The notes: generated by a model not told the origin, from the sequence alone. A stretch of DNA of 64,000 bases from Escherichia coli (GCF_003334815.1 NZ_QOWO01000001.1), one strand, 5' to 3'. Positions 1 through 1,600 are shown, numbered from the stretch's first letter. A program made the numbers and translations.

Positions 1-1537
1 AAAAAATCGGCTCAAACATGAAGAAATGAAATGACTGAGTCAGCCGAGAAGAATTTCCCCGCTTATTCGCACCTTCCTTAAGCAATCTGCTGCTGAAGCG
101 CCCCCAACTTCGTGCACTGAGCCTGGCAAAACAAGAGGCTGTATTTTGCAGCACCCACCCCGGTTTGCCTGTCGGTCCGGTTGCTGAAAAGGAACGATGG
201 CGGCACGATATGCTGATTCGTTTTCCTGAAGATACAGGTACTCTGCCCTGGCTCCTGTTAAAAACACCTTACAAAAATGGTACGGTCATTACCGCCACGG
301 ATTATTATTTTATTCAGGACATCATCTCTGTGGTTCATGCGGTTCCTGCAATACAATTCCGTTTGGGAAACACGGTCCTGTCAGCCAGCGGAAAAAATGT
401 CACTCTGCCCCCGAACGACAGCGGCATACAAAAAGAAAGTCATTCAAAAAAATATCCGTTCTCCTTGATTTATATCATCCCGGTGAAAATGCAACTTACC
501 TACGCCTGGAAACAGGCCTGGTATATGTTTCCTGTTGCCATCTTCAGTGGAATACTCACAGCCTTTCTGCTGTCCCGACGTCGTCCATCTTCCCCGCTCG
601 ATATGCTGAAAAATGCACTTGCTCACGGAGAGTTCAGACCTTATTTTCAACCCATCATTTCCGCTAAAAATCACCAACTGACTGGCTGCGAAGTACTGAT
701 TCGCTGGCATCACCCCGTCAGCGGGATTATCCCACCAGATCAGTTTATCCCGCTGGCAGAGTCCACCGGATTAATTGCCCCGATAACGCAACAGTTGATG
801 TCTCAGGTCGAACATAGCCTTAATTCTGTTGCAGATTTTTTACCCGATCAATTTCATATTGGGATCAATATTTCACCAGCGCATTTTCTGTCCCCGAGAC
901 TGGAAGATAGCTGTATGAAGTTTCTATCCACCTTCCCGAAAGGGAAAGTGAAACTGCTTCTGGAACTGACAGAGCGAAACCAGCTATCCGTCACAGCAGA
1001 ATCAAAAGCGTTATTTGCGAAATTACATCAACAAGGAGTATTGTTCGCACTGGATGATTTTGGCACGGGTTATGCGACTCACAGCTACCTGCAGTCGTTT
1101 CCTGTCGATTACATCAAACTCGATAAAGGGTTTGTACAAATGGTCGGAGTGGATGAAATCTCCGGGCATATAGTAGAAAATGTTATTGAGCTGGCTCGTC
1201 GGTTATGTATTGATATCATTGCCGAAGGCATTGAAACCGAATCACAGGAGTTGTTCATGACAGAGAAAGGAAGCAGCTATCTGCAGGGATACCGCTATGC
1301 ACCTCCACTACCCGCTGAACAGTTTATTGCTGAGTGGGTATACAACAGCAGAAACGGCAAAAACCAGAGATAACACATACTGAAATGGACCAGGATATGC
1401 GTCCCTCTTTTCACCTCATCTCCCAATTCCCGGGTTTGATTCCTTTTTCGCAGCAAAAGGGACCGAGGGTACAAAAGAGGGTACATTTCTCACCAAACCA
1501 AACAAATCAGATTTATATCAACATGATAGAAGCAATC
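1..1537. mobile_element. Probable right-hand end of a pheV-associated genomic island (partial, continues left of window)
   Basis: Bounded on the right by a 22-nt fragment matching the 3' end of tRNA-Phe (1538-1559), then a tRNA-type terminator and the gspM/gspL genes that flank pheV in K-12. No integrase is visible in the window. Confidence 0.4.
165..1373 (+). CDS. EAL-domain c-di-GMP phosphodiesterase, membrane-anchored; start uncertain, probably 5'-truncated
   Basis: 402-aa ORF with EAL-family motifs (EVLIR, ELTE, DDFGTGYA, KLDKGF, EGIETE, LQGY) after a hydrophobic segment (MFPVAIFSGILTAFLL). Only a TTG start with no Shine-Dalgarno; in-frame stop at 93-95; internal ATG at 489. Confidence 0.6.
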   Translation: MPVGPVAEKERWRHDMLIRFPEDTGTLPWLLLKTPYKNGTVITATDYYFIQDIISVVHAVPAIQFRLGNTVLSASGKNVTLPPNDSGIQKESHSKKYPFSLIYIIPVKMQLTYAWKQAWYMFPVAIFSGILTAFLLSRRRPSSPLDMLKNALAHGEFRPYFQPIISAKNHQLTGCEVLIRWHHPVSGIIPPDQFIPLAESTGLIAPITQQLMSQVEHSLNSVADFLPDQFHIGINISPAHFLSPRLEDSCMKFLSTFPKGKVKLLLELTERNQLSVTAESKALFAKLHQQGVLFALDDFGTGYATHSYLQSFPVDYIKLDKGFVQMVGVDEISGHIVENVIELARRLCIDIIAEGIETESQELFMTEKGSSYLQGYRYAPPLPAEQFIAEWVYNSRNGKNQR

Positions 1538-1559
1538 TTCGATTCCGAGTCCGGCACCA
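1538..1559 (+). repeat. 3'-terminal fragment of tRNA-Phe (pheV-type), probable island attachment-site remnant
   Basis: ttcgattccgagtccggcacca matches the last ~22 nt of E. coli tRNA-Phe (T-arm, acceptor stem, CCA) with one missing G. The preceding 55 nt do not match the rest of the tRNA. Confidence 0.55.
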
Positions 1560-1571
1560 CTAATTCTTAAG

Positions 1572-1600
1572 AACCCGCCCACAAGGCGGGTTTTTGCTTT
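1572..1600 (+). terminator. Rho-independent terminator (tRNA-type)
   Basis: GC hairpin cccgccc-acaa-ggcggg followed by tttttgctttt. Confidence 0.6.

Follow-up and report, generated by a model that had tools for sequence, protein, structure and literature searches.

Genomic islands at the pheV tRNA gene of Escherichia coli (GI-pheV) are, in the established model, integrated by a P4-type integrase through site-specific recombination between the island attP and the pheV 3' end. PMC11537424 (PLoS Genet 2024) defines a GI-pheV by an intP4 integrase adjacent to pheV together with a pheV remnant serving as attR, and Table 1 of that paper lists a 23-bp imperfect attR, TTCGATTCCGAGTCCGG-CACCA, for APEC O1, S88, ED1a, H10407, 12009, 55989, 042, 536, REL606 and others. 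For LEE-negative STEC, insertions at pheU and pheV were described that carry at their far end a 22-bp direct repeat of the tRNA 3' end, with a one-base shift relative to K-12 and with an 'EAL domain-containing protein' among the cargo (PMC6174562). The EAL phosphodiesterases of K-12 with a CSS domain are PdeC, PdeB, PdeD, PdeG and PdeN (PMC5897775). Disulfides introduced by DsbA/B into the CSS domain lower their activity, and high activity is a property of the free-thiol or processed TM2+EAL forms; control by DsbA/B disulfides and DegP/Q processing was demonstrated for PdeC and PdeB only (PMC5897775).

The DNA analysed here, referred to as the window, is the whole stretch of 64,000 nucleotides from an E. 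coli genome contig. We are highly confident that window 1-1607 represents the attR-side right end of a GI-pheV island, with an EAL gene as its last cargo gene, broken by IS5 (Table 1). The locus shares with GI-pheV as published in PMC11537424 the site between yqgA-pheV and yghD, the attR, a P4-type integrase beside pheV and a flu/yee-type module towards the right. It differs from other GI-pheV in part of its cargo and in that the EAL gene is interrupted by IS5 in the source strain; an EAL gene is mentioned nowhere in PMC11537424. The insertions of PMC6174562 concern other strains and other cargo sets, and no disruption by IS5 is described there. The right junction of pheV islands is thus an already published, textbook structure, the strain-specific features (IS5 in the EAL gene, an assembly break in IS5) are ordinary, and the findings on window 1-1607 leave the current understanding unchanged. 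Their use lies in the exact boundary between core and accessory DNA that the junction provides at one of the busiest integration hotspots of E. coli, which is helpful for annotation and for island typing.

Table 1. Features at the island end and the adjoining chromosome (window coordinates).
Feature	Position	Strand	Basis
Last 77 bp of IS5 on the side of the insH stop codon	1..77	+	77/77 identical to the K-12 IS5A end
TTAA, presumed IS5 target site, abutting the IS5 end	78..81	.	read from sequence
3' part (codons 81-511 + stop) of CSS-domain EAL gene, last island cargo	78..1373	+	in-frame translation
Conserved island terminus, P arm of the attachment site	1429..1537	+	present with or without the EAL gene
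Two direct GAGGGTACA copies, candidate integrase arm-type sites	1465-1473, 1477-1485	+	motif occurrence
attR core, copy of the pheV 3' end minus one G	1538..1559	+	alignment with K-12, published attR
Native chromosomal pheV 3' flank with intrinsic terminator	1560..1607	+	base-identical to K-12
yghD/gspM, first chromosomal gene right of the island	1708..2244	-	ORF; annotated yghD in all matching genomes

The attR repeat and the proposed site of strand exchange

In the attR core TTCGATTCCGAGTCCGGCACCA, 22 nt reproduce the pheV 3' end from the T-loop to the CCA; the sequence equals the last 23 nt of K-12 pheV (TTCGATTCCGAGTCCGGGCACCA, L002 4420-4442) minus one G of the GGG run. Letter for letter it is the imperfect attR of Table 1 in PMC11537424. 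A search of the 64-kb window with the first 17 nt of the repeat gave a single occurrence, with 0.01 expected from shuffled sequences, and on this count a chance origin of the 22-mer was rejected. A fuzzy search of the 64-kb window with up to 5 edits allowed yielded no second copy of the repeat. The full pheV 23-mer gave no match in the window with ≤3 mismatches because the difference from pheV is an indel; the 17-mer and the fuzzy search settled the repeat.

The preliminary description had claimed a 22-nt copy of the tRNA-Phe 3' end without a tRNA body and had read it as the right-hand repeat of a pheV island, and both claims hold. ARAGORN found 0 tRNA genes in the window, Rfam returned no tRNA match in window 1-3000 even at E≤10, and the 60 nt located 5' of the repeat do not align to the pheV body. 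A divergent but complete tRNA-Phe gene, which had been named as one of the findings that would speak against the island reading, was therefore rejected: neither program recognised a cloverleaf, and the upstream sequence is unrelated to the body of pheV. In the empty K-12 site yqgA, pheV and yghD follow each other with nothing between. A four-way alignment places the breakpoint at the pheV T-loop, with the window identical to K-12 from the first T of the loop through the terminator to yghD, and unrelated to the empty site to the left of this base. The terminator announced after the repeat, described as tRNA-style, is likewise present. A terminator scan located a stem-loop at 1568-1596 followed by a T run, base-identical to the K-12 pheV 3' flank and thus native to pheV. 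Rfam terminator look-alikes at 1540-1603, obtained at permissive thresholds, were sub-threshold and at chance level.

Regarding the position of the crossover, attL always carries GGG and attR carries GG, the latter at both pheV and pheU. The attR variants in Table 1 of PMC11537424 differ from pheV only upstream of GGCACCA, with the extra T of EC958 as the exception. Taken together, these two patterns point to strand exchange in the final ~7 nt of pheV (GGCACCA) and not in the T-loop. They also suggest that the attP of the island supplied the left part of the core, with the missing G.

Complete islands at pheV and the same end at pheU

The truncated SslE' protein encoded at 2878-5022 was used as a lineage marker for finding relatives of the window. 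In the source assembly GCA_965212685.1, contig 1 (L012) matches window 1-15022 at 100% identity, and contig 23 (L030) carries yqgA, an intact pheV (76/76, ARAGORN), an intact 421-aa integrase and island cargo. The integrase is of the P4 type, with Arm-DNA-bind_3, Phage_int_M and Phage_integrase domains, and is found ~200 nt from the intact pheV; it is located outside the window, on this separate contig. L030 is 99.95% identical to strain 52F4 over 21.5 kb. In GCA_037967545.1, which shows 1 mismatch to the window in 14,945 bp and is without the IS5, L008 and L032 are two stretches of one contig, which extends from the integrase end to EAL, 22-mer and gspM. The intact pheV and integrase which the preliminary description had proposed to look for further left were accordingly found in the source assembly, and we infer their linkage to the window end from the relatives (L008/L032, 52F4).

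The proposed comparison with pheV islands of other strains gave the same arrangement, as in LD27-1 and 52F4, which share the junction, the opposite island end bears an intact pheV and a tyrosine integrase. LD27-1 (L004) shows the order yqgA, intact pheV, integrase pseudogene, IS elements and cargo, DUF4942, EAL, 22-mer and yghD. In 52F4 (L024), with an intact pheV and an intact 421-aa integrase, 27,190 bp separate the ends of the repeat cores. The cargo comprises, in this order, an eptA-like transferase and an outer-membrane protein; restriction and helicase debris; orphan CdiA-CT/CdiI genes (CDI toxin and immunity); a yee module (antirestriction, RadC, DUF987, CbeA/CbtA, DUF5983, DUF957); a 1045-aa autotransporter with a DUF4942 remnant; and finally the EAL gene and the 22-mer, followed by gspM. 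Apart from the yee module, the DUF4942 remnant and this last part, these genes distinguish the lineage of 52F4, L030 and L040 from other GI-pheV. A look-up of the autotransporter product did not have the source assembly among its returns.

The anatomy of the window fits the P4-type recombination model. A P4-type tyrosine integrase would have recombined the circular island, at its attP, with the 3' end of pheV. Integration would leave an intact pheV and the integrase at the left end, and the 22-nt partial copy of pheV, the original pheV terminator and yghD at the right end, so that the DNA between the two copies of the pheV 3' end would be the island. The EAL gene lies between the yee/CbtA-CbeA module, together with the autotransporter in this lineage, and the conserved terminus.

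The closest EAL region (99.9%) was found in ETEC1732 (L001), where the DNA to the left of the EAL gene is different (6179-12674) and consists of IS3/IS21 debris, a P4-like satellite segment encoding a polarity suppression protein and a second integrase, and a prophage that has an integrase of its own. With this different left side and no pheV within 20 kb, the site in ETEC1732 is a larger composite.

The segment next to the repeat is conserved in its own right. Window 1429-1607, comprising terminus, repeat and terminator, is 90.5% identical to the end of the island in strain 536, which has the same terminus and repeat and no EAL gene, and the same terminus segment of about 110-130 bp was detected in L001, L003, L004, L007 and L008. 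The 49.9-kb 52F4 locus contains 3 copies of GAGGGTACA, compared with ~0.4 expected by chance; two precede attR in direct orientation, and the third, inverted, lies 164 nt past pheV and just before int. The GAGGGTACA repeats are probably arm sites of the integrase, because their placement fits an integrase with an Arm-DNA-binding domain.

The end composed of yee module, EAL gene, terminus and 22-mer is not confined to pheV and was also found at pheU beside cadC/cadCBA (L014, L017, L019, L039, L044). GCA_027274735.1 (L016/L017) carries the end formed by EAL gene, terminus and 22-mer at both pheV and pheU. In K-12 the 3' flank of pheU (L025, pheU-cadC, pseudogene yjdQ), compared with L004 765-900 and with L024, is 83-92% identical to the left arm of the pheV island over the first ~133-157 nt, and beyond this point shows a 68% match to a 3' fragment of an integrase. 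The likeness of the flank and the integrase fragment indicate that the 'empty' pheU site of K-12 holds the stump of an old island.

The EAL gene, alternative origins and the IS5 insertion

The preliminary description had regarded the EAL gene as likely island cargo, which is borne out by its position left of the repeat, by its low GC content (44-48% around the gene vs 51-58% further right in the window), by its occurrence at pheU and by the terminus shared with 536. In S88 the same gene is the last one, ending 187 bp before the published end of the island. Among 5,426 complete E. coli genomes, 462 carry the gene (~8.5%), of which 438 have most of it; in 437 of these 438 it is contiguous with the sequence to its right. 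Islands with and without the EAL gene share one terminus beside the repeat, which places the gene inside the conserved island end as a variable module. What the description had not recognised is that the gene is not whole in the window, with its first 80 codons cut off by IS5.

A 3'-end copy could also be what is left of a pheV gene whose 5' part was removed by an IS-mediated or recombination-mediated deletion, without any integration. That the window begins in IS5, that other deletions are found in the neighbourhood and that the window itself lacks a second copy of the repeat would agree with such an origin. However, the source assembly has an intact pheV by yqgA and an integrase, the 22-mer and the upstream terminus recur in many unrelated genomes with an intact pheV, and the 22-mer recurs at pheU and matches the published attR, which makes a mere leftover of pheV extremely improbable. 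It is equally hard to believe that the EAL gene belonged to the ancestral chromosome between pheV and yghD and was lost from K-12 and most other strains. Such an ancestry would explain why the same chromosomal flank always adjoins the EAL gene in carriers at the pheV site, but with respect to the repeat the gene is on the island side, and in K-12 pheV directly abuts the identical terminator. Moreover, the same gene and terminus occur at pheU beside cadC, and the restriction to ~8.5% of complete genomes and a GC content below that of the backbone argue against a gene of the ancestral chromosome.

Slightly more room can be given to tandem accretion at pheV, in which the EAL gene and the terminus would be a small element of their own or what is left of a second island. 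The gene is a presence/absence module that 536 does not have, and tRNA sites often gather tandem islands, with an old stump retained at pheU of K-12. Nevertheless we consider this very unlikely, since no internal att-like copy of the pheV 3' end (≤5 edits) was detected in the islands of 52F4, LD27-1, S88 and L008, the same terminus is found beside the repeat whether or not the EAL gene is present, and in 52F4 and LD27-1 no second integrase is located next to the EAL gene. We thus retain the right end of a single GI-pheV island with the EAL gene as its last cargo.

The translation of the EAL reading frame in the window is identical to residues 81-511 of the 511-aa protein encoded in L001 (ETEC1732), and a 511-aa EAL protein is annotated beside yghD in the closest genomes. 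Pfam assigns to the intact 511-aa homologue a CSS-motif at 39-226 and an EAL domain at 256-490 (E=1e-60 for EAL), and the membrane protein is built of TM1, a periplasmic CSS domain with a pair of conserved cysteines, TM2 and the EAL domain. The window copy departs from this layout, as it is without the start codon, the first 80 codons, TM1 and Cys73, the first conserved cysteine of the CSS domain. All catalytic motifs of the EAL domain are kept (E-x-L-x-R, N, E-L-T-E, DDFGTG, K, E-G-x-E as EGIE, and Q-G as QGY). The best full-length NCBIfam model for the protein is of the CSS-EAL type (PRK10551), the type of the CSS-domain phosphodiesterases of K-12 (PMC5897775), and a score of 265 bits against a cutoff of 461 marks the protein as a paralogue and not an equivalog of the K-12 protein modelled. 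Unlike the K-12 enzymes it is island-borne, and its EAL domain is nearest to that of PdeL/YahA (E=3.3e-93), whose N-terminal domain differs; the window copy further differs from them in having neither TM1 nor the first cysteine.

By analogy with PdeC, the intact protein is very likely a c-di-GMP-degrading enzyme controlled by the redox state of the periplasm. As a predicted CSS-EAL phosphodiesterase carried on an island, it would form an accessory part of the c-di-GMP network in about one twelfth of complete genomes. Database records name it only 'EAL domain-containing protein'. The gene is absent from the GI-pheV end of strain 536, the strain on which PdeX is reportedly defined, and no match of the EAL protein to PdeU1-3 was made. 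Within the EAL coding sequence Rfam gave a match to Gut-1 at 846-956 on the minus strand (30.2 bits vs a gathering score of 50, E=0.0034), which is probably due to chance.

The target preference of IS5 is YTAR, and the exact terminus of the element abuts TTAA within the coding sequence, as in other genes disrupted by IS5; nothing about the insertion is unusual. The element entered the EAL coding sequence 240 nt from its start (TTAA after codon 80), and insH is oriented to read towards the EAL remnant. The rest of IS5 lies outside the window: L012 reaches 44 nt further left, all IS5, and then the source contig ends inside the element, leaving one IS end visible and the first base of the window 45 nt from the contig end. 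The junction of IS5 and EAL was found in none of the complete E. coli genomes, and for the 88-aa fusion product predicted from the 5' part of EAL and IS5 no database record was found, nor did this search recover the TTAA duplicate expected beyond the element. The insertion may have been associated with a deletion or rearrangement of adjoining island DNA.

The insertion after codon 80 separated the remaining frame from its upstream part and removed promoter, start codon, TM1 and the first conserved CSS cysteine, so that the EAL gene is most likely inactive in the source strain. The IS5-broken gene then adds one more strain-level variation in the control of biofilm and motility. The frame stays open over what remains of the CSS domain, over TM2 and over the complete EAL domain, and N-terminally truncated variants of YcgG are still functional when overexpressed (PMC10459773). 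If the truncated enzyme were active, IS5 would have rewired c-di-GMP turnover rather than destroyed it. We give a low probability to the proposal that the IS5-truncated gene, if transcribed from within or through IS5, yields an unregulated TM2+EAL-type phosphodiesterase, in PdeC the highly active form (PMC5897775), or else that the crossover falls in the last ~7 nt of the tRNA.

The chromosomal flank to the right

The preliminary description had placed chromosomal T2SS genes downstream of the repeat. This applies to gspM and a gspL fragment, and the remainder of the cluster is deleted. Across window 2246-5040 the T2SS-beta cluster is mostly gone, with the gspL fragment (2246-2701) joined straight to the 5' half of sslE (2875-5022, 715-aa product) and the junction of gspL and sslE at 2875|2876; relative to ETEC1732, ~13 kb are absent at this joint.

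When the sslE endpoint at window 2876 was compared with L009, L010, L011, L013, L046 and L047, one exact endpoint (|TAGGCGATCAG) was found to be common to three different deletions, whose left ends are located in gspL, gspK and gspD. A look-up by exact product selects for a shared sslE endpoint, yet it does not account for the three different partners. A fixed endpoint in sslE with variable partners looks like the outcome of IS-mediated deletion, though no IS is present. EC596 carries the gspL-sslE joint of the window in another sslE allele, and in GF31 the joint is 38 bp away. Further to the right, a sharp GC trough (29-35%) is found at window 5001-5400, in the intergenic region between the start of sslE and glcA.
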